DNA from: an uncultured delta proteobacterium
Lineage (GTDB): Bacteria; Desulfobacterota; DSM-4660; Desulfatiglandales; HGW-15
DNA length: 64,000 nt
Assembly (NCBI GenBank): GCA_963740905.1
Contig: CAVUFY010000013.1
Span: forward strand, 264,147 to 328,146
Direction: 5' to 3'
Shown here one piece after another: positions 5,980 through 41,584 of the stretch (position 1 is its first letter; each line of letters opens with the position of its first letter). Under the pieces are notes generated by a model. That model was given only the letters and a program-made list of their open reading frames with translations, made no database searches and had not been told where the DNA came from. Both the position numbers and the translations under genes were made by a program.

Positions 5980-6057
5980 GTTAAAGAAATCGGTTCTCTG
6001 TTCTGAGGACGCGGTACATTTCAGTTCCTAGAAACAAACCTGGAAAGGAGGGTGTTC

Positions 6058-7800
6058 ATGGATAAGATACTTCGCGTCGATATGGGTGCGGAAGGCGGCC
6101 CCAAGGCAAAGGCCGTGGATGTTGGCGCCTATGCGGGCCTGGGTGGGCGAGCTCTCACCTCCGCTATCGTTTCCAAAGAAGTGCCTCCCCTGTGTCATCC
6201 TCTGGGCGAAGGAAACAAGCTGGTTATTGCTCCGGGGCTCTTAAGCGGCACAACCGCCGCCATGTCGGGCCGTCTCTCGGTGGGCTGCAAGAGCCCACTC
6301 ACCGGCGGAATCAAGGAGGCTAACGCAGGAGGCCAACCGTCGCAGATGCTTGCCAGACTGGGGTATGCGGCTATTGTTCTGGAAGGAAAACCGAAAGACG
6401 ACACCCTTTACAAGATACTCATTAACAAGGACGGCGCAAAAATCATTCCGGATAAGAGCCTCAGGATGCTGGGTAACTATGATCTGGTGGAAAGGTTAAA
6501 AAAGGAATACGGGGACAAAGTGGGTATCATTTCAATTGGGCCTGCCGGTGAAATGAAGATGTCAGCGGCTTCCATCGCTTGCACGGATATGGAAATGCGG
6601 CCCACCAGACACGCGGGACGAGGGGGCGTAGGAGCCGTCATGGGTGCCAAGCATGTAAAGGCCATCATCCTTGACGACACGGGCATGAAGATGCGTTCCC
6701 CTAAGGATCCCGAGACGTTCAAAGACGCCAGCAAGAAATGGGTGGAAGGACTCCGCAAGCACCCCGTAACGGGGCAGGGTCTGCCCGCTTACGGCACCAA
6801 TGTGCTCACCAACGTCATCAATGAGGCAGGCGGCTATCCGACCCATAACTTCATGTGGGGCCGTTTCGAGGGATGCTCCAAGATCAGCGGGGAGACGCAG
6901 GCTGAGACGGAAAATGCAAGGGGCGGCGAAGGTTCCGCGACCCACGGCTGCCACCGCGGCTGTATCATCCGCTGCTCGGGCACATTCTATGATAAGGACG
7001 GTCACTACATGACCAAGCAGCCTGAATACGAGACCGTGTGGGCTCACGGCGGCAACTGCGGGATTGATGATCTTGACGCCATTGCCACGTTGGATCGCAT
7101 GGATGACGATTTCGGACTTGACACCATTGAGATGGGCGCCACCATCGCCGTGGCAATGGATGCGGGACTGGCCAAGTTCGGAGATGCACAGGCTGCCATT
7201 AATCTACTCAAAGAGGTGGGCAAGGGAAGTCCGCTCGGTCGTATTCTGGGTAACGGCGCAGCGGTCACGGGCAGAGTGTTCGGGGTGGAAAGAGTCCCCG
7301 TGGTCAAGGGACAATCCATGCCCGCTTACGATCCCCGGGCCGTCCAGGGTATCGGCGTCACTTATGCTACGAGCCCGATGGGTGCCGATCATACCGCCGG
7401 TTACGCGGTGGCAACCAACATCCTGGGAGTGGGCGGCAAGGTTGACCCGTTGAAACCCGAGGGCCAGGCCGAGTTGTCGAGAAACCTGCAGATCGCCACG
7501 GCCGCTATCGATTCTACAGGCATGTGCCTGTTCATCGCCTTTGCGGTAATGGACCAGCCCGAAACCTTTCAGGCTTTGATTGATCTGATCAATTCTTTCT
7601 ACGGTCTCAAGCTGGCTGCGGAGGATGTGACCGCGCTTGGGAAGTCCGTACTGAAAAATGAGAGGGATTTCAACAAGCGGGCCGGTCTCACTGATGAGCA
7701 GGACCGGTTGCCCGAGTTCTTCAAAAAAGAGGCTCTGTCTCCTCATAACATCACCTTCACGGTAACAGACAAGGATCTGGATTCCGTTTTCAACTGGTAA
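6058..7800 (+). CDS. aor: Tungsten-type aldehyde:ferredoxin oxidoreductase (AOR family), copy 1
   Basis: MDKILRVDMG...GLGGRALTSAIV...LVIAPGLLSGT... and C-terminal AOR domains. AAGGAGG lies 6 nt upstream of the ATG at 6058. Confidence 0.92.
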   Translation: MDKILRVDMGAEGGPKAKAVDVGAYAGLGGRALTSAIVSKEVPPLCHPLGEGNKLVIAPGLLSGTTAAMSGRLSVGCKSPLTGGIKEANAGGQPSQMLARLGYAAIVLEGKPKDDTLYKILINKDGAKIIPDKSLRMLGNYDLVERLKKEYGDKVGIISIGPAGEMKMSAASIACTDMEMRPTRHAGRGGVGAVMGAKHVKAIILDDTGMKMRSPKDPETFKDASKKWVEGLRKHPVTGQGLPAYGTNVLTNVINEAGGYPTHNFMWGRFEGCSKISGETQAETENARGGEGSATHGCHRGCIIRCSGTFYDKDGHYMTKQPEYETVWAHGGNCGIDDLDAIATLDRMDDDFGLDTIEMGATIAVAMDAGLAKFGDAQAAINLLKEVGKGSPLGRILGNGAAVTGRVFGVERVPVVKGQSMPAYDPRAVQGIGVTYATSPMGADHTAGYAVATNILGVGGKVDPLKPEGQAELSRNLQIATAAIDSTGMCLFIAFAVMDQPETFQALIDLINSFYGLKLAAEDVTALGKSVLKNERDFNKRAGLTDEQDRLPEFFKKEALSPHNITFTVTDKDLDSVFNW

Positions 7801-7817
7801 TCGGTATTTTTCTTTTT

Positions 7818-7847
7818 GGGAGATCTCCATGGAGATCTCCTTTTTTT
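7818..7847 (+). terminator. Rho-independent terminator after AOR-1
   Basis: GGGAGATCTCCATGGAGATCTCC followed by TTTTTTT. Confidence 0.8.
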
Positions 7848-7935
7848 CGCCAGGTCGGGATCTTGAGATCATCGCTCGGGAAAGAGAATCATGATCCTAT
7901 CGGAAGAAATAAACTGAATCATCCTTTTGAGGCTA

Positions 7936-8565
7936 ATGATGGGAAAGGATAGAGAAGCAGAAGGTGAGGGCGTAAGAGCTGAACCGGACCTTCTGATGGT
8001 CGTTTGTCAAGATCGGTTGTCTGCCTTTCAGGACCTTCTTCAAAGAGGCGTATGGGTAAAGGCGTTGATCGGTTCCACGGTTCAGTCTTTCCTCTGTGAC
8101 GGCCTGGGGATGGATCCACATTACGTGGATGAGAGAATTCAGACTGTGTTCTTGAATGGAAAAGCCGTTGACGATCCTTCCTCCGCCGTGATAACGGACC
8201 ACTCCACCATCGCTCTGTCCGCGGCCATGCCGGGACTCCTCGGGGCAACGTTGAGAAAGGGAAGCTATTATTCCAGAATGCGCAGCGAAATCTCTTACAG
8301 GGCACAAGAGGGAGTTCGGCCCCATGAAGGGTGGATTCTCCTGAAACTGTTCAACCTTCTTCCGCGGGAGATAGGTCCCCTGGTGCTACAGAAAGGTGCG
8401 AGGGTGAAAGGGAAGGACATCCAAGATTTTCTCGGAAAAAGGTCATCTTTTTTCTGGCAGGGTTGTATGGATGTGAGACTGAAGGGAAAGAAGGTGGACC
8501 CTGGCATGCTTGTCGATATGAAATGGCCGGAACAGGACGTCTTCCTCAGAGTCCAGGTAGCATAA
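7936..8565 (+). CDS. Hypothetical protein (about 209 aa) in the AOR-1 locus
   Basis: ORF 7927..8565, with the first ATG at 7936. I recognised no family. The segment IQTVFLNGKAVDDPSS is faintly beta-grasp-like. The antisense ORFs are Pro/Arg-rich junk. Confidence 0.5.
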   Translation: MMGKDREAEGEGVRAEPDLLMVVCQDRLSAFQDLLQRGVWVKALIGSTVQSFLCDGLGMDPHYVDERIQTVFLNGKAVDDPSSAVITDHSTIALSAAMPGLLGATLRKGSYYSRMRSEISYRAQEGVRPHEGWILLKLFNLLPREIGPLVLQKGARVKGKDIQDFLGKRSSFFWQGCMDVRLKGKKVDPGMLVDMKWPEQDVFLRVQVA

Positions 8566-8802
8566 TCATCCGCCGGCGACGGGCGGGAAAACTCCTATTC
8601 TGTCCCCTTCACGGAGCACTTCATCTCCTGTCGCTTGGACGCCGTTGAGAAAGACCACTTTTACGGCTTCCAGAGGGACCTTCATCGCCTCCAGAAGCTC
8701 TCTCACCGTGATCCCCACATTCGCCTCCACCGTCGGTGAACCCCTCCACTGCTCCGGCATGAAACGGGAAAGCGAGGCATAGAGTCTCAATTGTATTTTC
8801 AT
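8566..8802 (-). CDS. MoaD/ThiS-family sulfur-carrier protein (ends in Gly-Gly)
   Basis: 78 aa with C-terminal ...GDRIGVFPPVAGG. Confidence 0.75.
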   Translation of the reverse strand: MKIQLRLYASLSRFMPEQWRGSPTVEANVGITVRELLEAMKVPLEAVKVVFLNGVQATGDEVLREGDRIGVFPPVAGG

Positions 8803-8817
8803 GAAAGATCAATAACC

Positions 8818-9768
8818 ATGGCCAAAGACATTTGTCAACGGTCACTGGAAATGGACGATTTTCTTGCATTCCCCTCAAAAAAGCTTTACACGAGACCTAT
8901 GGAAGATGCGCTGGCGAAGATCATTCGAAGCAAAGCAAGAAGATTTGAGGATCCCGCAGGCCGCCAAGTGGACGTCCTTGATGAGCATGAGGCGCTGGAG
9001 ATAGGTCGGGCTTGCGATTCTTCCCTCCGCGAGATTTACAGGCAAGCCCTCCGCCTCGGCCTCTGTCCCTGTCGATACGTGAGGAACAGACAGATCCTTT
9101 CCCTCCAGGAACAACTGAAGCTGGCCGAGTCACGAGTAACGGTGGTGGGCGCCGGGGGGCTTGGAGGTTCTGTCCTGTCTTTGCTGGCCCGGGTGGGAGT
9201 GGGTCACCTCGTGGTGGTAGACAGTGATGCTTTCGATGAGACGAATTTGAATCGCCAAGCCTTTTGCCACGTTGAGAACCTGGGAAAGCTCAAGGCCCAA
9301 GAAGCGCGCAGCCAGATGAAACGCATCAACCCGGGCGTGGAGGTCACGGCCCACGCAACTCTCTTTGATGATTCCAACGGGAGGGAGATCCTCACCGGTT
9401 CTCAGGTCGCCGTCGACGCCCTTGACAATGTGGAGAGTCGTCTGGTCCTGGAAAAGATTGCCCGGAGTCTCTGTATCCCTCTGGTCCATGGAGCTCTGGC
9501 AGGTTTCGAGGGGCAGGTTATGACCATATTTCCCGGAGACACCGGACTGCGGCAAATCTATGGAGATGGAAGAAAAGAAACCGATGCTTTTGCGCGGCCA
9601 GAGGCGATTCTCGGGGTACCCGGGATTACGCCTTCCCTCGTCGCCGCCTTTCAGGCCATGGAAGTTCTCAAGATCCTGTTGAACCGGGGAAGCGTCTTCA
9701 GGAACACAATGGCCTACGTGGATCTTGAAAGCGGCGAAATCAGTCGTTTTAGTTTTAGTGAAGAGTGA
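8818..9768 (+). CDS. ThiF/MoeB/HesA-family adenylyltransferase with an N-terminal extension
   Basis: VTVVGAGGLGGSVLSLLARVGVGHLVVVDSDAFDETNLNRQ is the E1-like nucleotide-binding motif. The start is uncertain (8791, 8818 or later). Confidence 0.8.
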   Translation: MAKDICQRSLEMDDFLAFPSKKLYTRPMEDALAKIIRSKARRFEDPAGRQVDVLDEHEALEIGRACDSSLREIYRQALRLGLCPCRYVRNRQILSLQEQLKLAESRVTVVGAGGLGGSVLSLLARVGVGHLVVVDSDAFDETNLNRQAFCHVENLGKLKAQEARSQMKRINPGVEVTAHATLFDDSNGREILTGSQVAVDALDNVESRLVLEKIARSLCIPLVHGALAGFEGQVMTIFPGDTGLRQIYGDGRKETDAFARPEAILGVPGITPSLVAAFQAMEVLKILLNRGSVFRNTMAYVDLESGEISRFSFSEE

Positions 9769-19144: not shown

Positions 19145-19412
19145 TTGGTCGTGCTAGACGGGGAGCCAGCGGTGCCCTGTAACCCGAAAACCGCTTACGC
19201 GGGGTCGAAAGTCCTTGTTGAGAGCCGCGCGTCGGTTCTGCCCCTTGTCGCCTCTCGCAAAGGGTGGACCTCACGTGACAGACGGTTACAAACCCCGTCA
19301 GGTCCGGGAGGAAGCAGCGGTAAGTAATGCGGTCTGTGTCGTGATGAAACCTACCCGTTTCGGAGGTGTTGAAGACAGGCCGGTGCGAGTTCGAAGGAGG
19401 ATGCACGACCAA
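19145..19412 (+). ncRNA. ffs: Signal recognition particle RNA, long (Alu-domain, Bacillus-type) form
   Basis: The 5' end GGTCGTGCTAGACGGGGAGCCAGCGGTGCCCTGTAACC closely resembles the 5' Alu domain of B. subtilis scRNA as I recall it. The S-domain core GTCAGGTCCGGGAGGAAGCAGC is present. The 3' GCACGACCAA pairs with the 5' TTGGTCGTGC. Confidence 0.85.
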
Positions 19413-31390: not shown

Positions 31391-32170
31391 TTACCGGGAG
31401 GTCACAGACTGTCTTTCGACCTTCAGGCGGATGGCTTCGGCCGCTTCCTTGGTAAAGGCTCCGAGGGCTTTCATCCTGGCTTCATCAAGACTCGCCTTGA
31501 ACCCCACGACCCAGATCGCGGACATGCGATGACTTCCCGCCATAATAGGCGCAGCCACAGCCCTCACTCCCGGGATATACTCTTCATCGTCCGTGGCAAA
31601 TCCCCGCTGTTTCACGACTTTCATTTCTTCACAATAACGGTCCAAGTCTGTGATTGTGTTGTCCGTGTATTTGGCCAGCCCCTTCATACGAATCTGCCTC
31701 ACTGCCTGCTCTTCTTCCATCATGGCCAGGAAGACCTTCCCGACAGCGCCCGCAAGGAGAGGGATGTTGGTTCCAATGGGGGAGGTGATTTTCAGGTCTG
31801 TCCTCGGTTCGACAATGTCGAGGATCGTGACGTGATCCCAGTTGAGCACACCTAGAAAAACGGAAGCTTGGGTCTTCTCCATGAGTTCTTCCATGGCGGG
31901 GCGCGCGAGATCCTTCAGGTCAATCTGCGAATAGGCCGTTTTGCCCAGTTCAAACAAGGTAAAACCCAGGGTGTAGCGTTTGGTCATGGGATCCCTTCGC
32001 ACGGCTCCCAACTCTTCCAGCGCGGAAGTCATGCCGTGCACCGTGCTCTTGGCCATGTCCAGTCCCCGGGCGATTTCACTGATGCCCATGCCTTCTTTGA
32101 CTGAGGCGATCAGTTTGAGGACCTCGAAGGCTTTTACGACGGAAGGAGCAGAGTATGCTTTTGCCATCAT
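31391..32170 (-). CDS. IclR-family transcriptional regulator
   Basis: N-terminal wHTH (VVKAFEVLKLI...GISEIARGLDMAKSTVHGM) and a C-terminal IclR effector domain. Confidence 0.88.
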   Translation of the reverse strand: MMAKAYSAPSVVKAFEVLKLIASVKEGMGISEIARGLDMAKSTVHGMTSALEELGAVRRDPMTKRYTLGFTLFELGKTAYSQIDLKDLARPAMEELMEKTQASVFLGVLNWDHVTILDIVEPRTDLKITSPIGTNIPLLAGAVGKVFLAMMEEEQAVRQIRMKGLAKYTDNTITDLDRYCEEMKVVKQRGFATDDEEYIPGVRAVAAPIMAGSHRMSAIWVVGFKASLDEARMKALGAFTKEAAEAIRLKVERQSVTSR

Positions 32171-32325: not shown

Positions 32326-32433
32326 ATTCACTGTTTTGGGTTCATAATGATGAACTCCCTTTCGGGACTTCAGTTCCGACGGAGTCGGGAGCTATCTGAA
32401 ATTCGAAGGAGTCGGATTTCAGGGAGGAACGAG

Positions 32434-33492
32434 ATGGATTTTGAAAACCTTGTCGAAGGTCCTTTACTGTGGATTGTTTTTCTCGTCCTCATCATCGCCG
32501 TCCTGGCAAGGCTGAGCTTTTTTTCCTTCAAAATTATCCATGACGCCGACACGGCGCAACCTGGGCGGAGTTCGAAAGCCGCCCTGTTCGGTCGATTCTT
32601 TTTCCCTTTCCATAAGGCATTGGTCAAGAGACCAGCCTATGCTCTCCCACGCTACATTTTTCATTTCTGCCTGTTTGTAGTTCCCCTCTGGTTGGGCGGT
32701 CATGTAGCGCTTTGGGCCGAATCCCGTTTTGAATGGGAGTGGTCTTCCCTGCCCGACCCCGTTGCGGACTGGATGACCATCGCCGTAATGGTCATAGCCG
32801 TGTTCTACGTCATCCGAAAGATCGCGTGGCCCGGTGTAAGACCAGGATCGTTGTCCGACTACCTGATCATCCTCATCGCCGCGCTACCTTTCTTCACCGG
32901 GTACTCTCTTTCTCACGGAACCCTCGACGCTCTGCCTGTGATCGGAGGGCATGTGATGCTCATCCATGTACTGAGCGGTCAGGCGATGATGGTCATGGCA
33001 GCGTTTCTCTTCTGCAGAACACGGCTAAACCCATCGAGATGCACGGGATGTGCTTCCTGCGAATTAAGCTGCCCTACCGGGACTCTCGAATCCAAAGATG
33101 AGGGAAGATTTCGAATTTTCAGTTACTCCCATTATCAATGCATTTGTTGTGGCGCCTGCGTTAACACCTGCCCGGAGAATGCTGCGGAGCTCAGACACGA
33201 AATCAGCCTCAAGGAGTTCTTTCAGGTTATCCCTAAGCAGGAAATCAGATCAGTAGAACTGAAGGCCTGCCAGAAATGCGGCGCTCTTTTCGTGCCCGAG
33301 CCTCTATTGGATAAAATCAACCGGACCTTTTCGGACGACTATCTCTTCTTCTGCCCGAACTGCAGAAAAACCAACCTCCTCAATCTGTACCGCAGGCTGT
33401 CACCCCTGTATACCAAAGAGCCGTCTCCTTCGCATGAGCCTGTGTTACCCGAGACAAAAAACGGCTCTTCCGAAAGACCCGCACACCGCTAG
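32434..33492 (+). CDS. Membrane protein: NarI/DsrM-like 5-TM (putative b-type cytochrome) domain fused to a 2x[4Fe-4S] ferredoxin domain
   Basis: About five hydrophobic helices carry His residues in helices 2 and 5 (FHFCL...GGHVALW; GGHVMLIHV). These are followed by CTGCASCELSCP and CICCGACVNTCP. The start is at MDFENL; the ORF opens at 32347. Confidence 0.7.
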   Translation: MDFENLVEGPLLWIVFLVLIIAVLARLSFFSFKIIHDADTAQPGRSSKAALFGRFFFPFHKALVKRPAYALPRYIFHFCLFVVPLWLGGHVALWAESRFEWEWSSLPDPVADWMTIAVMVIAVFYVIRKIAWPGVRPGSLSDYLIILIAALPFFTGYSLSHGTLDALPVIGGHVMLIHVLSGQAMMVMAAFLFCRTRLNPSRCTGCASCELSCPTGTLESKDEGRFRIFSYSHYQCICCGACVNTCPENAAELRHEISLKEFFQVIPKQEIRSVELKACQKCGALFVPEPLLDKINRTFSDDYLFFCPNCRKTNLLNLYRRLSPLYTKEPSPSHEPVLPETKNGSSERPAHR

Positions 33493-33640: not shown

Positions 33641-33784
33641 CAATAAGATGTTCAGGGGAATGAACTCACCTGTACAGTGCGATAGGACGAATTGACCTTT
33701 GCTGGTTGGTTCTTTTTCGCAGCAGAAAGATCTGCCGCGACCACATGCTTCCAAGATACACTGGGAACAAGAAAGGAGATCGTT

Positions 33785-34063
33785 ATGGCGCCAGAGAAAG
33801 GAGATCTTTCAACAGCAGAAAGCCTGCGCTCTACCAGGACATACGGCAAATTCCGATGCCACAATCCCACATGCATGGAAAGGCTGGAACCCAAGAAAGG
33901 TGATAAAACCATCAAGTGCCCGTCGTGCGGCATGGAATACCGCGTTGCATGGGTCAAGGATGGACTCCCTCGAATCAGGGGACCGGTCTGGGACGTGAAC
34001 CGAAAAATCGCTGAAGAAGAATTAGCCAGAAAAATGCAGGCTAAGGGGAAGGAGGAGAAGTAA
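33785..34063 (+). CDS. Small zinc-ribbon protein (92 aa), translationally coupled to AOR-2
   Basis: AGGAGAT SD, then MAPEKGD...CHNPTCMERL...CPSCGMEY. Its stop overlaps the AOR-2 start (TAATG). Confidence 0.6.
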   Translation: MAPEKGDLSTAESLRSTRTYGKFRCHNPTCMERLEPKKGDKTIKCPSCGMEYRVAWVKDGLPRIRGPVWDVNRKIAEEELARKMQAKGKEEK

Positions 34064-36003
34064 TGCCTTTAAACAGAAAAATTGCTTATATTGATCTCAC
34101 CACAGGGGACATCCAGATAAAACCTATTCCTATCGAGGTTCGAAAAAAGTTCCTCGGAGGCAGAGGGCTGGACGCCTACCTGCTTTTTAACCACGCCAAA
34201 GAGGGGTGTGATCCCCTCGGCCCGGACAATGCGCTCATGGTGAGCGGCGGATTCCTTTGCGCCACCTGCGCTTCTGCAACGTCCAGGTGCCATGTGATGG
34301 CCAAATCCCCCCTAACCGGACTTTTGGGGAGCTGCAACATGGGCGGTTTTTTTTCTCCTGAAATGGCCTGGGCAGGGTTCCATCATCTGGTAATCACAGG
34401 CAAAGCCAAGCATCCCGTATACATCTATATCCATAACGGCGAAATCGAGATCCGTGACGCCCGCGGCGTGTGGGGCCTGAGTGTGACGGAAGCTCAATGG
34501 GCCATTCGGGATGATCTCGGCGACCAGGAAGTCAAGAGCATGGTCTGCGGCCCTGCCGGCGAGAACCTGGTCCGATACGCCAACGTGATGACCGGGATCA
34601 AAAACTCGGGCGGAAGGACAGGCATGGGCTGCGTCATGGGCTCGAAGAACCTCAAGGCCGTTGCCGCCAGGGGAACCATGGACATCCCCATCGCACACCC
34701 CAAAGAGGCTCTCGAATTCAATAAGCGTTTCATTGAACAGATCACGAGCGCCAAGGTGAACCAGACCCAGGGCACCATCGGTACGCCCTTCATCTGGGGC
34801 GCCACCAACTCCTGGGGAGGAATCCGGTGTAGGAACTTCCAGTTAAACCAGTGCGAATACGCGGATGACGTCGAACCTGAGCATCTCGACGAAATCGCCG
34901 AGGAAACGATCGGACCCTACCACATGACCGGTTGTTTCGGTTGTCAGGTGCACTGCCGGGCTCAGTACAAGATCCCAGATGGTCCCTATGCGGGCAAGTA
35001 TGATGAGGGGCCGGAATATACCTCCCAGGGCGCTTTCTGCGGGGAAACGGACACCCCCAGGGCAACTACTCTGCTGACAGCCAACCACCTTGTGGATCAG
35101 TACGGAGTGGACAACCTTGAAATCGGCAGCATTATCTCCTGGGCCATGGAGCTCTATGAGTTGGGGATACTGACCAGCAAAGACACGGACGGCGTGGATC
35201 TGCGCTTCGGCAATGACGAAGCGGTCATTGAAATGATCCACCGCATTTGCTACAGGAAGGGTTGGCTTGGCGACGCTCTGGCCGACGGAGGTATTCCTGC
35301 TTCGAAGAAGATCGGCAAGAACTCCTTCAGCTATCTGATCCAGGTCAAGGGCATGAGCAACCTTCATTCCGACGAGCGGGCCACGCCGGGCCTTGCGCTC
35401 AACATCGCCACCTCCTCCAGAGGTTCGGACCACCTGCGAAGCCGGCCTGCTATCGACCTTTATCACCTTCCTGAACCGGTCATGCGAAAGATTTACAGCA
35501 GTCCGGTTCCTTACGACGGACCCTTGAGCTCCGAGCATACGGAATATATCGGCAAACCCTGGCAGGTCTTCTGGCATGAAAACTGTTACATGGCCGTGGA
35601 TTGCCTCGGGATCTGCAAATACCACACGACTTTTCTCGGGGCGACCCTTCCCAACTTCGAGGACTGGGCAAAGGTCATTTACTACAATACGGGCCTTCAG
35701 TTTACCCCTCAGGAAATCTGGGAGGTCGCCGAGAGGTGTAACAACATGGAGCGGCTCTTCAACTTGAGGGAAGGGTTGTCCAAGGATGATCCTGAAAAGG
35801 GCGATGTGCTCAACCATCGTTATCACGACGAGCCTTGCAGGCGTGGCGCGCCGGACGTCGTCGGTCGACTCATTGATAAGGACAAGTTCCTGAAGATGAG
35901 GGCTGAGCTTTACGGCCACAAGGGTTGGGATGAAGATGGAATCCCCACACCTGAGACTCTGAAAAGACTCGGCATCGACAACGAGCCGTCACACTTGGTG
36001 TAA
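34063..36003 (+). CDS. aor: Tungsten-type aldehyde:ferredoxin oxidoreductase (AOR family), copy 2
   Basis: IAYIDLTTG...FLGGRGL..., Cys ligand region, and AOR C-terminal domains. At 646 aa it is longer than copy 1. Confidence 0.92.
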   Translation: MPLNRKIAYIDLTTGDIQIKPIPIEVRKKFLGGRGLDAYLLFNHAKEGCDPLGPDNALMVSGGFLCATCASATSRCHVMAKSPLTGLLGSCNMGGFFSPEMAWAGFHHLVITGKAKHPVYIYIHNGEIEIRDARGVWGLSVTEAQWAIRDDLGDQEVKSMVCGPAGENLVRYANVMTGIKNSGGRTGMGCVMGSKNLKAVAARGTMDIPIAHPKEALEFNKRFIEQITSAKVNQTQGTIGTPFIWGATNSWGGIRCRNFQLNQCEYADDVEPEHLDEIAEETIGPYHMTGCFGCQVHCRAQYKIPDGPYAGKYDEGPEYTSQGAFCGETDTPRATTLLTANHLVDQYGVDNLEIGSIISWAMELYELGILTSKDTDGVDLRFGNDEAVIEMIHRICYRKGWLGDALADGGIPASKKIGKNSFSYLIQVKGMSNLHSDERATPGLALNIATSSRGSDHLRSRPAIDLYHLPEPVMRKIYSSPVPYDGPLSSEHTEYIGKPWQVFWHENCYMAVDCLGICKYHTTFLGATLPNFEDWAKVIYYNTGLQFTPQEIWEVAERCNNMERLFNLREGLSKDDPEKGDVLNHRYHDEPCRRGAPDVVGRLIDKDKFLKMRAELYGHKGWDEDGIPTPETLKRLGIDNEPSHLV

Positions 36004-36025
36004 TTTTTGGATGAGGAGGAAACCA

Positions 36026-36523
36026 ATGGCTAAAGTGCTCTATGTTGATTACCAGAAATGCACAGGCTGCAGGCTCTGCGAACTTGTGTGTTCTGTGTTC
36101 CACGACGGCATTTCCAATCCGGCCAGAAGCCGAATCAGGGTCATGAAGTGGGAGCAGGAGGGGCTCTACATCCCCATGTCATGCCAGCAGTGTGTGGACG
36201 CCCCCTGCATGAATGTGTGCCCGGTCAAGGCTATTTCAAGAGATGAGGATATGGCCAGGGTCATGGTGGACTACGATAAATGTATCGGCTGCCGATCCTG
36301 CGTAGCCGTCTGTCCCTTCGGCGCCATGTCCTTCAATCGCATGGACAAGAAGGTGTTCAAGTGCGACGTCTGTGACGGCGATCCCCAGTGCGTCCGCTTC
36401 TGTGACATGAAGGCCGTGGATTATGTCGATGCCGACGAGGTAAGCATTCATAAGAGAAGGGATGCCGCCACAAGAGTATCCCGTGCGGGGAAAGAGGCGG
36501 CCGCCATGGTGGCACAACTCTAA
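36026..36523 (+). CDS. Poly-ferredoxin electron-transfer subunit (4 x [4Fe-4S] motifs, AorA/HybA-like)
   Basis: CTGCRLCELVCS, CQQCVDAPCMNVCP, CIGCRSCVAVCP, CDVCDGDPQCVRFC. Confidence 0.88.
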   Translation: MAKVLYVDYQKCTGCRLCELVCSVFHDGISNPARSRIRVMKWEQEGLYIPMSCQQCVDAPCMNVCPVKAISRDEDMARVMVDYDKCIGCRSCVAVCPFGAMSFNRMDKKVFKCDVCDGDPQCVRFCDMKAVDYVDADEVSIHKRRDAATRVSRAGKEAAAMVAQL

Positions 36524-36635
36524 CGCCATCACACAGTCAAATCAGAGAGGTTTCCGGTCGCCGGCTGGGAACCTCTTTTTCGACCGTTACATCTCGCAGG
36601 GCCCTTTGAGAGGCAGGGTTTTTTGAGAGGCGGCC

Positions 36636-38066
36636 ATGGAAATTAAGACCATCGATCTCCTTTCTGTCGGCATAGACGTCGGCAGCGCAACCAGTCACTT
36701 GGTCTTTTCAAACCTGGTCCTGGCGAAGGACGAGATGTCCCCGACGCTCCGGTTCAATATCAAGCAAAGAAAGGTCATTTACGAGGGCGAGATCATTCAG
36801 ACCCCTCTTCTCGAAGACAAGACTATTGATGTGGATGCGTTGACCGCCTTTTTCAGGCGGGAATACGAGAAGGCGGGAATTGACCCCGCCCACATTCAAA
36901 CCGGCGCGGTGATCATTACCGGGGAGTCGGCCAAGAGACACAACGCACGGCAGATCGCTCAGGCCCTGTCCAAGGATGCAGGGAAGCTCGTGGCGGCGAC
37001 TGCGGGCCCTAACTTCGAAAGCCTTCTCGCTGCTATGGGCTCCGGAGCAACCGGAAGATCAAGAGATCAGAGCAAGACCATACTTTCCTGCGACATCGGC
37101 GGCGGGACATCCAACCTGGCCATTTCCAGAAACGGTGAAGTTCTCTCAACGAGTTGCATCGCTGTAGGCGGCAGATTACTGGCCATGGATTCTGAGATAA
37201 GAATCCGCCAGTTTGCCGATCCGGCGATGAAAGTCATGCGGGATATCGGCTTGAACTATCAGGTCGGCGATCGGATACTCAAAGAGGATATTGGAAAAAT
37301 CGCATCCAGGATGGCCGAAGTGCTGGTTGAAGTGTTGACGGGGCCTGCCAAGTCTTCCCTGGCAAAACAGCTCATGGTAACCGGTGATCTGGACTTTTCG
37401 ACCCCTGTCGATGAATATCTGTTTTCCGGAGGGGTGGCAGAGATCATCTACGGAAGAAAGGGTCGTTACAATGACATCGGAAGTATTCTTGCAAAAAAGA
37501 TCCAATCGTTGATTCCTGCACTCAAGTCTCCGGTTGTAGAGCCGGTCAACAAGATCAGAGCGACGGTCATCGGTGCAGGGGCCTATTCCCTGTCCGTTTC
37601 GGGTTCGTCGGGCTTTATAGACGACCGTCTCATCCTTCCTATCAGAAACATCCCTGTCCTGAGGGTGGACGCGGAGCTTCCAAAGCTGAGTCTGGAACAT
37701 GTCGTTTCACGGGTGAACATGGCTTTTCGGAGACATGATTTGCTCGAAGGCCAGGAAATCGTGGCCCTCTACTTCAAGGACCCTGTCCGGGTCAACTATC
37801 CGGAGCTGGAGCTCTTTGCAAAAGCCATGGAAACGGCCCTTCCAAACTCTATCACCAAAGAGCTGCCCATTGTCCTCATTTTTGGAAAAGATATCGCATG
37901 CAGTGTGGGCAAGGTTATTCGCCGGGAAACCGATTTGAAAACCAATCTGCTTTCCCTGGACGAATTATCCCTCAACGACGGGGATTGGATCGATATTAGC
38001 GAGCCTTTGGTAGGGCGGCAGGTATTTCCTGTCACCGTCAAATCGCTCGTCTTCCCTGTAAACTAA
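36636..38066 (+). CDS. EutA-family (ethanolamine ammonia-lyase reactivase-like) ASKHA ATPase
   Basis: LLSVGIDVGSATSHLVFS...GAVIITGESAKRHNAR...VAATAGPNFES...DIGGGTSNLA...VGGRLL parallels E. coli EutA block by block, as I recall that sequence. Confidence 0.85.
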   Translation: MEIKTIDLLSVGIDVGSATSHLVFSNLVLAKDEMSPTLRFNIKQRKVIYEGEIIQTPLLEDKTIDVDALTAFFRREYEKAGIDPAHIQTGAVIITGESAKRHNARQIAQALSKDAGKLVAATAGPNFESLLAAMGSGATGRSRDQSKTILSCDIGGGTSNLAISRNGEVLSTSCIAVGGRLLAMDSEIRIRQFADPAMKVMRDIGLNYQVGDRILKEDIGKIASRMAEVLVEVLTGPAKSSLAKQLMVTGDLDFSTPVDEYLFSGGVAEIIYGRKGRYNDIGSILAKKIQSLIPALKSPVVEPVNKIRATVIGAGAYSLSVSGSSGFIDDRLILPIRNIPVLRVDAELPKLSLEHVVSRVNMAFRRHDLLEGQEIVALYFKDPVRVNYPELELFAKAMETALPNSITKELPIVLIFGKDIACSVGKVIRRETDLKTNLLSLDELSLNDGDWIDISEPLVGRQVFPVTVKSLVFPVN

Positions 38067-38264: not shown

Positions 38265-38735
38265 TCAGACTTTCAAAGCTCTCTCCAGCGCAAGTCCTGC
38301 CATCTTCCTTACATGCTCATCGCTTGAGATCAGGTAATCCGCGATTCCCTCTATAAACGATGCAGTGAAAAGCGCCAGTCCATCGAAGAGCTCTTCCTTT
38401 TCCTCCTTTGCCCGGAGACACACGATCTTAGGAAACTTTCTCTGCTTCTTGAATCCTTCCACAAGGATCAAATCACAACCGGCACAATATGGGAGCATGT
38501 CATCAAGACTCTTTTCTCCCTTGACGATGATTTCTGCCTCCCCGGGAGAAGCGGCTGCAACCACCTCGGCGAAGGGTCTGTATCTGGACGAATCCGCATC
38601 GGCAAGCCGGAGCTCACAGGAAACGTGTTTGACCACCCCCACACGCAGCCCTTTGTCGGAGAGTTCCCTGCACAGTTTAACACCCAGCGTGGTCTTGCCG
38701 CTCTTGTGGTAACCGACGATGCCGATGACTTTCAC
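38265..38735 (-). CDS. mobB: Molybdopterin-guanine dinucleotide biosynthesis adaptor protein MobB-like
   Basis: MKVIGIVGYHKSGKTTL...VGVVKH... and MobB-like size. Confidence 0.8.
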   Translation of the reverse strand: MKVIGIVGYHKSGKTTLGVKLCRELSDKGLRVGVVKHVSCELRLADADSSRYRPFAEVVAAASPGEAEIIVKGEKSLDDMLPYCAGCDLILVEGFKKQRKFPKIVCLRAKEEKEELFDGLALFTASFIEGIADYLISSDEHVRKMAGLALERALKV

Positions 38736-38741
38736 TTCATT

Positions 38742-39014
38742 CTATCCTCCTGCAAGCATCATGGTCACATGAATCTCATCCCCATCCTTTACCGGTTTAA
38801 GCAGTTCATTCGGGTAGGCGCTCTGCATATTCAAATAGATCTCCACGACGTTGTTGAGTCCCCCCTTCTTATCGAAGATGTTCGGCCCCATGCCCGGGAA
38901 TATCCCTACCAGAGTCTTTAGGCATTCTCCTACCGTTTTTCCTTCCACCTCGACCATTTCCTGCCCGTTTGCGTATTGTCTGAGAGTCAGGTGAAGGTTT
39001 ACTTTCACACCCAT
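38742..39014 (-). CDS. moaD: MoaD/ThiS-family sulfur carrier (C-terminal Gly-Gly)
   Basis: 90 aa, ...GDEIHVTMMLAGG. Confidence 0.8.
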   Translation of the reverse strand: MGVKVNLHLTLRQYANGQEMVEVEGKTVGECLKTLVGIFPGMGPNIFDKKGGLNNVVEIYLNMQSAYPNELLKPVKDGDEIHVTMMLAGG

Positions 39015-39017
39015 GTC

Positions 39018-39761
39018 CTACTCCTCCTTGGCCACGTGGGCACAGTGTTCACATTCCGGATTCCTGCTCACCTTGAATTCGGCAAACCTCAGATTCAGCC
39101 CATCGTAGATCAACAAACGATTGACGAGCAGTTCGCCGGCCCCCGTGAGATATTTTATGACCTCCGTAGCCTGGATGCAACCGATAACCGCCGGTGTAGC
39201 ACCGAGAACAGGGAATTTCTCATGAGGTCCGGGGCCTCTGTAGAGACAGCGCAAGCATGCGCTTTTTCCCGGAATTACAGTCATGGCCCGTCCTTCCAGG
39301 CCGCGGACCGCGCCATGGAAAAAAGGAATACGCAGCGCGACGGCCGCTCTGTTCAGGATGAACCTTGTAGGCAGGTTATCCATGGCGTCCACGATTGCGT
39401 CACATCCTGTCGTAAGATCCTTCACATTGTCTTCTGTGATCGTCTTGTCTACGATTTCCACCTTGACGTGAGGATTCATTTTTCGAAGCTTTTCACTTGC
39501 TGAATCCACTTTCTTTCTTCCCACGTCTTCATCCCAGTGGAGGATCTGTCTATTCAGGTTGCTCACCTCAATCCTGTCATGATCTGCCAGCCTGATCCCG
39601 CCCACGCCGGCAACGGCGAGATACATGCTGACAGGTGATCCGAGACCTCCTGCGCCCGCAACAAACACTCTTGCCTCTTTCAGTTTCTCCTGCCCGGCTT
39701 CCCCAATCTCCGGGATCATGATCTGCCTGTCGTATCTTTTCAGCTCTTCGGCTTTGAACAT
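39018..39761 (-). CDS. moeB: Molybdopterin-synthase adenylyltransferase (MoeB/ThiF family)
   Basis: RYDRQI...VFVAGAGGLGSPV...DHDRIEVSNLNRQ and C-terminal CxxC pairs (CLRC, CEHC). Confidence 0.88.
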   Translation of the reverse strand: MFKAEELKRYDRQIMIPEIGEAGQEKLKEARVFVAGAGGLGSPVSMYLAVAGVGGIRLADHDRIEVSNLNRQILHWDEDVGRKKVDSASEKLRKMNPHVKVEIVDKTITEDNVKDLTTGCDAIVDAMDNLPTRFILNRAAVALRIPFFHGAVRGLEGRAMTVIPGKSACLRCLYRGPGPHEKFPVLGATPAVIGCIQATEVIKYLTGAGELLVNRLLIYDGLNLRFAEFKVSRNPECEHCAHVAKEE

Positions 39762-39928: not shown

Positions 39929-41342
39929 ATGACTGTCAAACGACAAAAGATGGTCATTCTTGCAAGCTATCTTCCCGGCGAAACCTACGGCCTTCTCGGA
40001 CCCCAGGCAGCGGCAACCATCATTCAGGGGCATTCCCCTTACGAATGCGTCGTCCTCGCGGTCACCAGAGAGGATGACAAAAGCCTGCTCAAAAAGCTCC
40101 TGGCCCGTTTCTTCGACTCTGGAAAGGCCTGTGGTCGGCTTTTCTTACCTCAGCGGAAGAGAAGACCTCTTCTCTTTTGCTAAAGAACTCACCGAGGAGG
40201 GAGGATTCACTATTCTAGCCGGTCCCCAAGCCGATGTGGATTACCTAGGTGAAAAGGAATGGCGAAAATACGACCACCGTTTTAACGGACTTTCAAAACA
40301 CTTTTCCTTAGCCCTGCACGGGCCTGCAGAGCAGATTCTTGCACTTTTTCATGAACCGAAACAAAGCGCCTGGAGCAAAGTGCCCGGATTGCTTTGGCCG
40401 GATAAAGAACAGGGGTTGATCCAGAATCCGAAGTCCTCATGGGATCCAGCCCGTTTCACCAGAGTTTCATGGAATAACCTTTATCGCCTGGTGGATGGCC
40501 AAATGGTCCCTCTGAAGATTACCACCGCGCAAGTTCTCTGGCATATCGGTTGCCCTCATGCGGCCCGCGCCCGGCTTGCGGAAGTGGATTATCCGGCGTT
40601 CCTGGCTGGAGGGGAAAGAAAGAAAACAAAGGTCCTTCTCAGGGGTTGCAGTTTCTGCGACGTGGCAGTAGACAAGGGTTTCCTCGGCTCTCTCGGCATC
40701 GAAGCCGTTCTCTCTCAGATCCAGAACCTTCCTGAAAAGGAGGACGGCCGGAAGATAAGTTTTGAATTGATCAATGAAAACGCCCTTCCTAGCCTTCCTC
40801 GCCTGCTGGAAGCGCTCAGGATCAAGGGGGTCAGTCTCTCCCAGATCCATCTCACTCTCAGGGCCGACTGGTTCGGACTGGGGGAAGCCTACCTCCGGCA
40901 AGCCCTGCGATTGGCCCGGGAGATGGGAATCCGGATCTTACTGGGGTCCATGGGTTTTGAATCCTTTGACGACACGATCCTTGCCAATCTCCACAAAGGC
41001 CTGGATGTGAGCACCAACCTGCGCGCCATTCAGCTTATGCGTCAAATGAAGAATGAGTTTCCCGACCAGTGGAGCTACTCCAGGCAGGATGGGGCCGTCC
41101 ATGGGTTCATTCATCCTACCCCTTGGGACACGGAGGAGACGGAGGCCAACAGCCGCAAAATTATTAACACCTACGGGTTGGCCCTTGACATCCTGCCGGA
41201 TCACAGTATACCTCTCATCATTCACCATGCCTCGGCCCTCGGGGACTGGATTCGCGAAGTGGAGACGAAAGAGAATATTCAATTCAAAAGGGAGGGCACC
41301 ATCATCGGATGGTGGCAGGCGGGAGATCAATTTGTGCTGTAG
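39929..41342 (+). pseudogene. B12-binding-like domain / radical-SAM-like protein with an apparent 1-nt frameshift near 40121-40130
   Basis: Frame A (39929-40130) gives MTVKRQKMVILASYLPGETYGLLGPQAAATIIQG...LLARFFDSGK. Frame B continues (R)PVVGFSYLSGREDLFSFAKELTEEGGFTILAGPQA, as in B12-binding domains. The C-terminus has GCSFCDV and LGSMGFESFDDTILANLHKG (radical-SAM-like). The alternative is two separate genes, the second starting at a GTG near 40129. Confidence 0.6.
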
Positions 41343-41389
41343 GAATGAACCCCGCAGATTTCATGGGACCAGAGCAAAGGAGGAAAGAC

Positions 41390-41584
41390 ATGAAAGTAAG
41401 GATTGATTACGACCTGTGCATGGGAGACAGGAATTGTAACAAGGTCTGCCCCGAGGTTTTTCAGTATGATGAAGACAAGCTCATATCACGTGTTCTAGCC
41501 GAAGTGGTGCCTAGACACCTGGAGAAGGCCGTGAGAAAAGCGGCTCGAGAATGCGCGCCGGGAGCCATTGTCGTGGAGGAGTAG
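41390..41584 (+). CDS. Small single-cluster ferredoxin
   Basis: AGGAGG SD, then MKVRIDYDLCMGDRNCNKVCPEVF...ECAPGAIVVEE. Confidence 0.7.
   Translation: MKVRIDYDLCMGDRNCNKVCPEVFQYDEDKLISRVLAEVVPRHLEKAVRKAARECAPGAIVVEE

Follow-up and report, generated by a model that had tools for sequence, protein, structure and literature searches.

The gene at 36636-38066 (+) of the window, by which we mean the whole 64-kb stretch of DNA analyzed here, raises the question of what a EutA-like protein does next to a gene for an aldehyde:ferredoxin oxidoreductase-type enzyme (AOR). We found the gene to be an intact open reading frame with an ATG start, encoding 476 aa, the same length as most of its 120 closest homologues. 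A preliminary description of this DNA had likened the product to EutA block by block, and every quoted block (GIDVGSATS, ITGESAKRHNAR, ATAGPNFES, DIGGGTSN, and VGGRLL) was located in the translation. The Pfam EutA family, PF06277, matched it with E = 1.9e-135 and 452.9 bits (cut-off, 27), and the alignment was full-length, with residues 8-473 covering model positions 3-474 of 475. Escherichia coli K-12 EutA (b2451) aligned along the entire length at 34% identity. The phosphate-1 (DxGxT), phosphate-2 (DxGGGT), and adenosine (GG) motifs of the ASKHA superfamily are conserved; D14, G16, T19, D153, G155-G157, and G265-G266 are invariant across clades, and T158 of the phosphate-2 motif is nearly so. 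A profile search of the PDB with the family returned ASKHA proteins only, led by MreB (1.3e-5) and followed by Ppx/GppA, EutJ, FtsA, and DnaK. The AlphaFold2 model of the ATPase was poor (mean pLDDT 64, pTM 0.42), so that no structural argument can be built on it.

We then compared the protein with EutAs that are encoded beside ethanolamine ammonia-lyase genes (eutBC). Among the NCBIfam EutA equivalog models, the best, NF007992, gave 387.8 bits against a cut-off of 598, and the window protein fell still further below the cut-offs of the other three. Identity to eutBC-linked EutAs was 34 to 35%, with a mean of 35% between the two clades, and even the canonical EutA of Desulfoluna, a member of the Desulfobacterales, shared just 38% with the window protein, compared to 64 to 94% within its own Desulfobacterales clade. 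In the tree, the window protein's clade and the canonical clade (E. coli, L052, L057, L066, and L074) formed separate groups with bootstrap values of 100/100 each. As the preliminary description had stated, the window holds no eutB, eutC, or microcompartment genes: there was no Pfam match to EutB, EutC, BMC, or EutN among the 60 ORFs scanned, a tblastn search of the window with all 17 E. coli K-12 Eut proteins matched with EutA alone, and neither eutB/eutC nor shell genes were present within 10 kb in any of the 16 loci of the clade. The gene had also been called an orphan. That term holds for the lack of eutBC in the window, but it describes nothing exceptional, since the canonical clade alone (4 loci) proved eutBC-adjacent when the 80 nearest family members from species-representative genomes were compared. 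The window gene is thus not a canonical EutA but a member of a separate branch of that ATPase family.

Which genes accompany this branch instead? In the window, an IclR-family regulator (31391..32170, -; Pfam HTH_IclR and IclR_C) is divergent from the operon of an AOR gene that we call AOR2, and the island has an IclR neighbor at 12 of the 16 loci of the clade in GTDB and at most of the metagenome loci. Next, on the + strand, come a membrane anchor of the TmcC/HmcE type with a fused 2x[4Fe-4S] ferredoxin domain (32347..33492, +; NCBIfam TmcC 7e-31 and HmcE 4.5e-23; Pfam Fer4), which has two CxxCxxCxxxCP motifs and recurs in the island, and a small zinc-ribbon protein of about 92 aa with an invariant CHNPxC...CxxCG signature (33785..34063, +; the mechanical ORF call was 33692-34063). 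No Pfam family matched the zinc-ribbon protein, whose gene overlaps the AOR2 start by one base and lies immediately 5′ of AOR2 in every locus whose contig extends that far. AOR2 itself (34063..36003, +) encodes a predicted tungstopterin large subunit, WorL (Pfam AFOR_N 3.9e-71, AFOR_C 9.4e-98; nearest solved structure, Pyrococcus furiosus AOR 1aor, 6.4e-91). Directly after it, in all islands, is the gene for a WorS/AorA-type ferredoxin (36011..36523, +), a 170-aa protein that matches Fer4 families and has 16 Cys in four 4-Cys groups, predictive of four [4Fe-4S] clusters. A "Class II WOR" has been defined as an AFOR_N/AFOR_C large subunit together with a four-cluster small subunit (PMC13328260), and AOR2 with the adjacent WorS fits this definition, tungsten rather than molybdenum being the presumed metal.

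The spacing between the ferredoxin and ATPase genes, put at about 110 nt in the preliminary description, measured 112 nt. Downstream, as also described there, the EutA-like ORF converges on three genes of the opposite strand, which encode a MobB-like GTP-binding protein of molybdopterin cofactor biosynthesis (38265..38735, -; Pfam MobB 8.9e-23; TIGR00176, 81.7 bits against a cut-off of 76.2), a MoaD/ThiS-like sulfur carrier of the "WorX" type (38742..39014, -; Pfam ThiS; C-terminal GG in ...LAGG; NCBIfam moaD_arch and SAMP1 matches under cut-off), and a MoeB/ThiF-family adenylyltransferase (39018..39761, -; Pfam ThiF 9.4e-79; NCBIfam MoeB models). Beyond them lies the predicted radical-SAM-like two-domain protein RS460 (39931..41342, +), whose presence had likewise been noted; the gene carries a frameshift near 40120, with the N-terminal 65 aa in the frame of ATG 39931 and the remainder in the frame of ORF 39960-41342, and the source record has a 403-aa product only (P0271). 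A small single-cluster ferredoxin (41309..41584, +; Pfam Fer4_15 and Fer4_13) follows RS460, as it does in related loci. No Moco/Tuco riboswitch or other Rfam element was detected in the island, either in the window or in nine related loci.

The association between the ATPase and AOR2 was assessed in both directions. In the forward direction, the flank at hand contained genes for IclR, the zinc-ribbon protein, AOR2, or WorS in 14 of 16 species-representative GTDB loci carrying the ATPase clade, and one further locus had mobB, moaD, and moeB. For the reverse direction, 80 metagenome loci were picked by AOR2 orthology (81 to 93% identity); where these offered 5 kb or more of flank on each side, 13 of 15 had the ATPase, and where they offered 8 kb or more, 9/9 did. 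The conserved content of the island comprises IclR, zinc-ribbon, AOR2 (WorL), WorS, and MoaD/MoeB/MobB, often with the radical-SAM-like gene, and the linkage persists through rearrangement of the gene order, the ATPase gene occupying four positions in the metagenome loci: after WorS (20 loci), after a MetV-like Fe-S protein (10), after IclR (9), or after RS460 (2). A discrete EutA-family clade tied to AOR rather than to eutBC, which the preliminary description had proposed to look for, therefore exists.

We also examined transcription signals around the gene. Between WorS and the EutA-like gene lies an intrinsic-terminator-like hairpin with a 16-bp stem and a U-tract (36544..36581, +). The 117-nt stretch that contains it (36524-36640) folds as RNA at -43.9 kcal/mol (z = -2.8), and a simple consensus terminator scan did not flag the hairpin. 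An equivalent hairpin and U-run, with differing stem sequences, are found in most loci that have the ATPase after WorS. In some lineages the ATPase gene, and no other, is preceded by a promoter-like motif, ATCA(A/T)TTGACACATAAGG (10 loci); the motif also stands in one locus whose contig stops ahead of that gene, and it is absent from the window itself. In the nine metagenome loci with the IclR arrangement, the ATPase gene is on the same strand as the regulator gene and 26 to 44 nt 3′ of it. The hairpins, the separate promoter-like motif, and the placement after IclR point to an accessory protein rather than a subunit, and a role as a catalytic subunit is unlikely. Taken together, these data show that the ATPase clade is a conserved, separately transcribed component of an AOR gene island in sulfate-reducing Desulfobacterales and is not associated with ethanolamine ammonia-lyase.

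Since a separate EutA-family branch travels with a tungsten AOR island, its members are candidate helper ATPases for the tungsten enzyme. EutA removes damaged cofactor from EutBC in an ATP-dependent manner (PMC5821096). By analogy, and from the gene association, we infer that the window protein may well be an ATP-driven, sub-stoichiometric factor for the maintenance of WorLS, acting in its maturation or reactivation, a reading that we favor while rating it just short of probable. The ATPase would open or remodel the WorLS complex, and the remodeled complex would then allow the buried tungstopterin cofactor to be installed, swapped, or restored to activity. The pterin-cofactor genes moaD, moeB, and mobB give the island a cofactor theme. 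Several observations count against an AOR role: the second AOR gene of the window (6052-7800) has no EutA-like ATPase nearby, and L118 and L154, two AOR2 loci whose flanks reach 5 kb or more, lack the ATPase. Tungstopterin is, moreover, chemically unrelated to cobalamin, and we know of no ATP-dependent chaperone or cofactor exchange for AOR-family enzymes.

The strongest competing explanation, which we nevertheless regard as unlikely, is that the protein is an ATP-coupled reductive activase working with neighboring Fe-S proteins, either WorS or a MetV-like protein plus ferredoxin. Such an activase, comparable to RACo and RamA, the ASKHA-type reductive activases of corrinoid proteins, and to the HgdC/BcrAD "archerases," would deliver low-potential electrons into an over-oxidized or inactive tungsten center or drive acid reduction. 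An Fe-S protein gene directly precedes the ATPase gene in 30 of 42 metagenome loci (WorS in 20, MetV-like DUF5981 in 10), the MetV-like cases form a MoaD2-ferredoxin-MetV-EutA-like gene string, and homologues of the window protein give weak Pfam cross-matches to BcrAD_BadFG. RACo and RamA themselves combine an ASKHA ATPase with Fe-S domains. The EutA-like protein, however, has three Cys only (152, 174, and 422), without a cluster-binding motif, and no Pfam match to a RACo-type or Fer4 domain. The MetV-like gene, a frequent neighbor in other arrangements, is missing from the window, and because WorS follows WorL in all islands, a position "after WorS" may equal merely "after the operon."

If the corrinoid chemistry of EutA had been kept and only the client had changed, the ATPase could be a cobalamin chaperone or reactivase for RS460. 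The AlphaFold2 model of an intact RS460 homologue, of moderate quality (pTM 0.72, pLDDT 68), resembles two radical-SAM methylases that depend on cobalamin, MgmA (E = 5.7e-10) and TokK, across about 470 alignment columns; RS460 is inside the island of the window, of 5 of 16 GTDB loci, and of many metagenome loci; and in two loci it is the gene immediately before the ATPase. Yet MiaB, which binds no cobalamin, was an equally good fold match, the Pfam Radical_SAM match was weak (0.002), there was no match to a B12-binding domain, and the invariant Cys motif is CX31CX2C rather than the CxxxCxxC canonical for class B radical SAM enzymes. In the window, RS460 is frameshifted while the ATPase is intact; four loci (L003, L007, L010, and L013; 10 kb of flank on each side) retain the ATPase without RS460, and two RS460 homologues of about 61% identity sit in unrelated contexts without AOR or EutA-like genes. 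RS460 is therefore a poor candidate, and we consider a cobalamin role quite improbable. The preliminary description had envisaged recruitment to either the AOR or the radical-SAM-like protein; the gene link is strong for the former and weak for the latter.

The ATPase might instead be a metabolic ASKHA enzyme and no protein chaperone, that is, a kinase or ATP-dependent activating enzyme for a substrate or product of the island, such as a carboxylic acid for AOR2. The superfamily includes many small-molecule kinases, and acetate kinase and sugar kinases were among the weak fold matches, but these stem from the poor AlphaFold2 model of the ATPase. The IclR-type regulator is typical for catabolic operons, and the other large non-eut clade, which is paired with a bicupin and often lies near UbiD decarboxylases, suggests catabolic modules. 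On the other hand, separate low-level transcription, as read from the terminator, the promoter-like motif, and the placement after the regulator, suits a maintenance factor better, and the sole characterized member of the family targets a protein-cofactor complex (PMC5821096). We think a metabolic role improbable to a similar or slightly greater degree. That the protein is a true ethanolamine ammonia-lyase reactivase for eutBC elsewhere in the genome, beside AOR by chance, is largely refuted and very improbable, for although homologues are publicly named "ethanolamine ammonia-lyase reactivating factor EutA," the scores under all equivalog cut-offs and the fully supported separation from every eutBC-linked EutA, including that of Desulfoluna, speak against it, and the two-way synteny with the AOR2 island over dozens of species cannot be chance.

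The sampled nearest relatives of the window protein include three well-supported non-eut groupings, none with a lyase nearby. Besides the AOR-linked Desulfobacterales clade, there is a large bacterial clade from Chloroflexota, Binatia, and Alphaproteobacteria in which the gene is paired with the bicupin gene mentioned above, and a group of Asgard archaeal sequences. No AOR was found near the Asgard homologues, whose genes are monocistronic with neighbors on the opposite strand, so that gene context is uninformative there. The Lokiarchaeal-type Asgard homologues are the closest non-bacterial relatives and are extended at the N terminus by 200 aa that include a CxxC...H(H/C) ribbon; homology of this extension to the small zinc-ribbon protein of the island was rejected (hhalign probability, 0.4%). 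Since the sister clades differ in this way, the clients of the EutA family appear to be diverse, and an AOR role gains nothing from them. The three groupings without a nearby lyase suggest that EutA-type ATPases may be maintenance factors in general, each specific for its client, and the automatic name given to the homologues has been over-propagated.

Returning to a maintenance role at WorLS, a bolder form of it is possible, if rather doubtful: the clade could be a dedicated ATP-driven factor that activates or reactivates a tungstopterin enzyme of the AOR family, the first of its kind. A EutA-type actin-fold ATPase would then have switched from a corrinoid to a pterin enzyme, serving either cofactor insertion or exchange or the reductive reactivation of WorLS, and "EutA" would be one branch among client-specific maintenance ATPases (AOR-linked, bicupin-linked, and Asgard). 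Our literature search found no published report of a link between a EutA-like ATPase and AOR, and EutA goes unmentioned in the AOR literature examined. The matter bears on how AOR-family tungsten enzymes obtain and retain their buried bis-pyranopterin cofactor. Obtaining these enzymes in active form from a heterologous host is notoriously hard, and a conserved, enzyme-specific ATPase of the island is a concrete, testable candidate.

Among the closest known systems are the accessory genes of WOR and AOR loci. ThiS-like WorX and ThiF genes have been described adjoining WOR genes and are the only accessory genes reported for them in that study (PMC13328260); in Aromatoleum aromaticum, aorD and aorE are accessory, non-subunit genes beside the AOR structural genes (PMC6365974). 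Like the ATPase gene, these are non-subunit genes next to the structural genes and are thought to act in cofactor maturation, and the window island likewise has MoaD and MoeB. In contrast, their products are sulfur carriers and adenylyltransferases of pterin synthesis, whereas the window protein is an actin-fold ATPase, a type that the text and examined supplements of PMC13328260 do not record among the genes accessory to WOR.

In mechanism, the proposed role recalls RACo, RamA, HgdC, and BcrAD/BadFG, ASKHA ATPases that are encoded beside their redox clients and carry out ATP-driven activation of metallo-cofactor enzymes; unlike the window ATPase, these have an Fe-S cluster or domain of their own. 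The diol and glycerol dehydratase reactivases DdrAB and GdrAB, functional analogues of EutA, also use an actin-fold ATPase for the ATP-dependent release of damaged cobalamin. They are two-subunit factors, unlike the window protein, and show no detectable sequence similarity to it, being absent from the PDB profile search at E up to 10; nor was a diol dehydratase found in the Pfam scan of the 60 ORFs of the window. EutA itself (PF06277; E. coli b2451) shares with the window protein a collinear end-to-end alignment, the ASKHA nucleotide-binding motifs, and the conserved C-terminal region GDxIDIG...PVxVKSLVF. The two differ in setting and presumed client: in the loci examined, the window clade never adjoins eutBC or genes for shell proteins but belongs to a tungsten AOR island, and its presumed client has a pterin cofactor, whereas that of EutA has a corrinoid.

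The EutA-like gene occupies window positions 36636-38066 on the forward strand and encodes, from an ATG start, a 476-aa protein containing every EutA-like sequence block quoted in the preliminary description. The match to Pfam EutA (PF06277) spans the whole protein and model (protein residues 8-473, model positions 3-474 of 475; E = 1.9e-135), the protein aligns over its full length with E. coli K-12 EutA at 34% identity, and the nucleotide-binding motifs of the actin-fold ATPase (ASKHA) superfamily (DxGxT at 14-19, DIGGGT at 153-158, GG at 265-266) are invariant in alignments across all clades. Against solved structures, the family profile matched only actin-fold proteins, MreB (1.3e-5) followed by Ppx/GppA, EutJ, FtsA and DnaK; no EutA-family structure was found in the PDB. 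The window gene is an intact EutA-family ASKHA ATPase. Its best score with the four NCBIfam EutA equivalog models was 388 bits versus a cut-off of 598, and its clade is separate from that of canonical EutA.

We scanned 60 window ORFs against Pfam and searched by tblastn with all 17 E. coli K-12 Eut proteins (locus L082). As to eut genes, both yielded the EutA match alone, with no EutB, EutC, BMC shell, EutN or other eut gene in the 64-kb window, in agreement with the preliminary description, which also had the neighbours right. AOR2 (WorL, the tungstopterin large subunit; 34063-36003, AFOR_N and AFOR_C domains) is followed by a 170-aa ferredoxin (WorS; 36011-36523, 16 Cys in four groups), a 112-nt gap and the EutA-like gene, with mobB, moaD and moeB convergent on the reverse strand 3′ of it and a radical-SAM-like gene (39931-41342) beyond them. 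The closest solved structure to AOR2 is P. furiosus AOR (1aor, 6.4e-91), and as judged from sequence, AOR2 and its four-cluster small subunit fit the definition of ‘Class II WOR’ (WorL plus WorS) in a 2026 classification (PMC13328260). The island also encodes a TmcC/HmcE-like membrane protein with a fused ferredoxin domain, which suggests electron delivery to the membrane. The stop codon of a small zinc-ribbon gene (33785-34063, ∼90 aa) overlaps the AOR2 start; its product carries an invariant CHNPxC...CxxCG, has no Pfam family, is encoded directly 5′ of AOR2 in every locus reaching it (the window, L003-L015 and L085-L164), and may be a third subunit or an assembly factor not yet described. 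The window holds a second AOR-family gene (582 aa, 6052-7800, in region 6052-9768) with a ThiF-family gene nearby, and without a ferredoxin subunit or EutA-like ATPase.

To place the protein, one genome per GTDB species was scanned with the family alignment, and the best 80 loci, ranked by similarity, had their context mapped both by tblastn (window island proteins and E. coli Eut proteins) and by de novo clustering of neighbouring ORFs. In a neighbour-joining tree with 100 bootstrap replicates, a canonical clade (E. coli, Desulfoluna, Clostridium, a Fusobacteriales MAG and a Bacillota MAG; bootstrap 100) was the only one among the tree sequences with EutB or EutC adjoining. A second clade from Chloroflexota (including Dehalococcoidia), Binatia and Alphaproteobacteria (bootstrap 100; L035-L081) had no eutBC nearby in any of its loci; in 26 of 45, a bicupin gene (∼370 aa) directly adjoins the EutA-family gene on the same strand, and the pair looks like an uncharacterised two-gene module. 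UbiD-family decarboxylases often lie near this pair (e.g., L071 4751-11422, L042 and L069). Asgard archaeal clades have monocistronic EutA-family genes. The window protein falls in a Desulfobacterales clade (bootstrap 100), whose sister group, joined to it with bootstrap 100, is made up of Lokiarchaeal-type proteins extended by 200 aa at the N terminus. Identity averages 70% within the window's clade, and 51%, 45%, 37% and 35% to the Loki-type, other Asgard, bicupin-type and canonical proteins, respectively; the clade is discrete because identities in the species-representative sample drop from 64% to 52% with a gap between. It is also large in metagenomes, where the family had >6,000 matches and the best 120 were all at least 70% identical, mostly of exactly 476 aa. 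Its closest relatives are Asgard proteins of Promethearchaeota and Heimdallarchaeota (L016-L020; P0121-P0129) at 48-52% identity, a kinship suggesting that the gene passed between Asgard archaea and sulfate reducers. P0121-P0129 are 640-830 aa long, and their 200-aa extension carries a CxxC...H(H/C) ribbon and has no Pfam match. In one 650-aa protein (P0160, from a library of representatives at 50% identity), a PduL-type phosphotransacylase (PTAC) domain is joined to a complete EutA domain.

The association with AOR genes that had been proposed for this gene proved strong in both directions, in a separate, AOR-linked and not eutBC-linked clade. In the forward direction, 14/16 species-level clade loci had IclR, the zinc-ribbon gene, AOR2 or the four-cluster ferredoxin in the available flank; L021 had mobB, moaD and moeB as in the window, and only L008, a 7.6-kb contig, lacked any island gene. 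A 72% identical metagenome homologue has exactly the window's gene order. For the reverse test, 80 metagenome loci were chosen by AOR2 orthology alone (81-93% identity). The zinc-ribbon/AOR2/ferredoxin core was present wherever the contig extends, and the EutA-like gene was found in 42 of the 80 loci overall, in 13/15 flanked by 5 kb or more on each side and in 9/9 flanked by 8 kb or more, counts that are not fully independent, as some contigs are near-duplicates. Its place in the island varies among four arrangements: it follows the ferredoxin in 20 loci (the window's order), a MetV-like DUF5981 Fe-S protein in 10 (in the string MoaD-like/ferredoxin/MetV-like/EutA-like), the IclR gene in 9 (same strand, 26-44 nt away) and the radical-SAM-like gene in 2. 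That the gene stays linked to the WorLS island in both directions, however the order is shuffled, speaks for selection to inherit it together with the whole island. In seven loci (L005, L106, L107, L119, L120, L122 and L128), a second, diverged AOR with its ferredoxin (54-57% identity to AOR2) precedes MoaD-like, ferredoxin, MetV-like (DUF5981) and EutA-like genes, the whole set lying upstream of the IclR-AOR2 unit.

The 112-nt gap 3′ of the ferredoxin gene contains a 16-bp hairpin followed by a U-run (−43.9 kcal/mol, z = −2.8), a site that a simple consensus terminator scan did not flag. In most loci that share the window's gene order, a hairpin and U-run come directly after the stop codon of the ferredoxin gene, with differing stem sequences (GGAGGUUUCCGG/CCGGAAACCUCC versus GGAGGUCGCCGG/CCGGGGGCCUCC). 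Lineages with longer gaps carry a motif, ATCA(A/T)TTGACACATAAGG, that contains a TTGACA box; in 10 loci (L087, L090, L091, L096, L098, L100, L104, L108, L123 and L147) it precedes the EutA-like gene by 60-260 nt. No other copy was found in those loci and none in the window; the motif recurs in L086, whose contig ends before the EutA-like gene. In L098, inspected in full, TATACT lies 17 nt downstream of the motif. The motif is partly palindromic (TCAATTGA) and therefore may also be an operator. Taken together, the hairpins and promoter-like motif suggest that the ATPase gene is its own, probably weakly expressed transcription unit, an arrangement more in keeping with an accessory factor than with a stoichiometric subunit. 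No Rfam elements were found in the island; elsewhere in the window, 19149-19408 is a bacterial large SRP RNA (RF01854, 124.5 bits), an ordinary housekeeping gene.

EutA requires ATP to clear damaged cofactor from EutBC (PMC5821096). On this analogy, the most economical reading, to which we tentatively give somewhat less than an even chance, is that the EutA-like protein serves the tungsten enzyme complex as a maintenance factor, driven by ATP, that would act in cofactor insertion, exchange or reactivation. RACo/RamA-like ATP-coupled reductive activation, which would proceed via the adjacent Fe-S proteins, appears unlikely; the window protein itself has three cysteines and no Fe-S motif was found in it. 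Less probable still is a corrinoid chaperone serving the radical-SAM-like protein. The ‘B12-type radical-SAM-like’ label is fair, as a provisional one, at the level of the predicted fold: the AF2 model of an intact homologue (pLDDT 68, pTM 0.72) matches the cobalamin-dependent methylases MgmA and TokK, and also MiaB, which has no cobalamin, over ∼470 alignment columns, and the invariant cysteines form CX31CX2C. However, several well-flanked loci keep the ATPase without this gene, and two homologues of 61% identity occur in unrelated contexts, so the radical-SAM-like protein is weak as a client; of the two candidate clients first proposed, the AOR has a strong gene linkage to the ATPase and this one a weak link. 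In the window, the gene is frameshifted near 40120 (at ...tctggaaaggcctg...), with its first 65 residues in the frame of ATG 39931 and the remainder in that of ORF 39960-41342. Homologues read GK-ERP across this point, and the public record holds a 403-aa product only. Either the gene is a pseudogene or the sequence is in error here. A small-molecule kinase or activating enzyme of the pathway seems a slightly poorer candidate again, and the AF2 model of the ATPase was of too poor quality for choosing among these readings. That the protein is a true EutA serving a distant eutBC is very improbable; it lies outside the eutBC-linked clade.

Recruitment of a EutA-type ATPase to a tungsten enzyme, of which we found no earlier report in the searchable open literature, is partly supported by these comparisons. 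No paper found there combined EutA with ‘aldehyde ferredoxin oxidoreductase’, and the text and available supplements of PMC13328260 do not mention EutA or an ATPase. The maintenance factor would provide a testable candidate for how AOR-family enzymes get matured or repaired. The putative cofactor-maturation neighbours in PMC13328260 are ThiS/MoaD-like and ThiF genes only, and likewise those in the A. aromaticum AOR paper.
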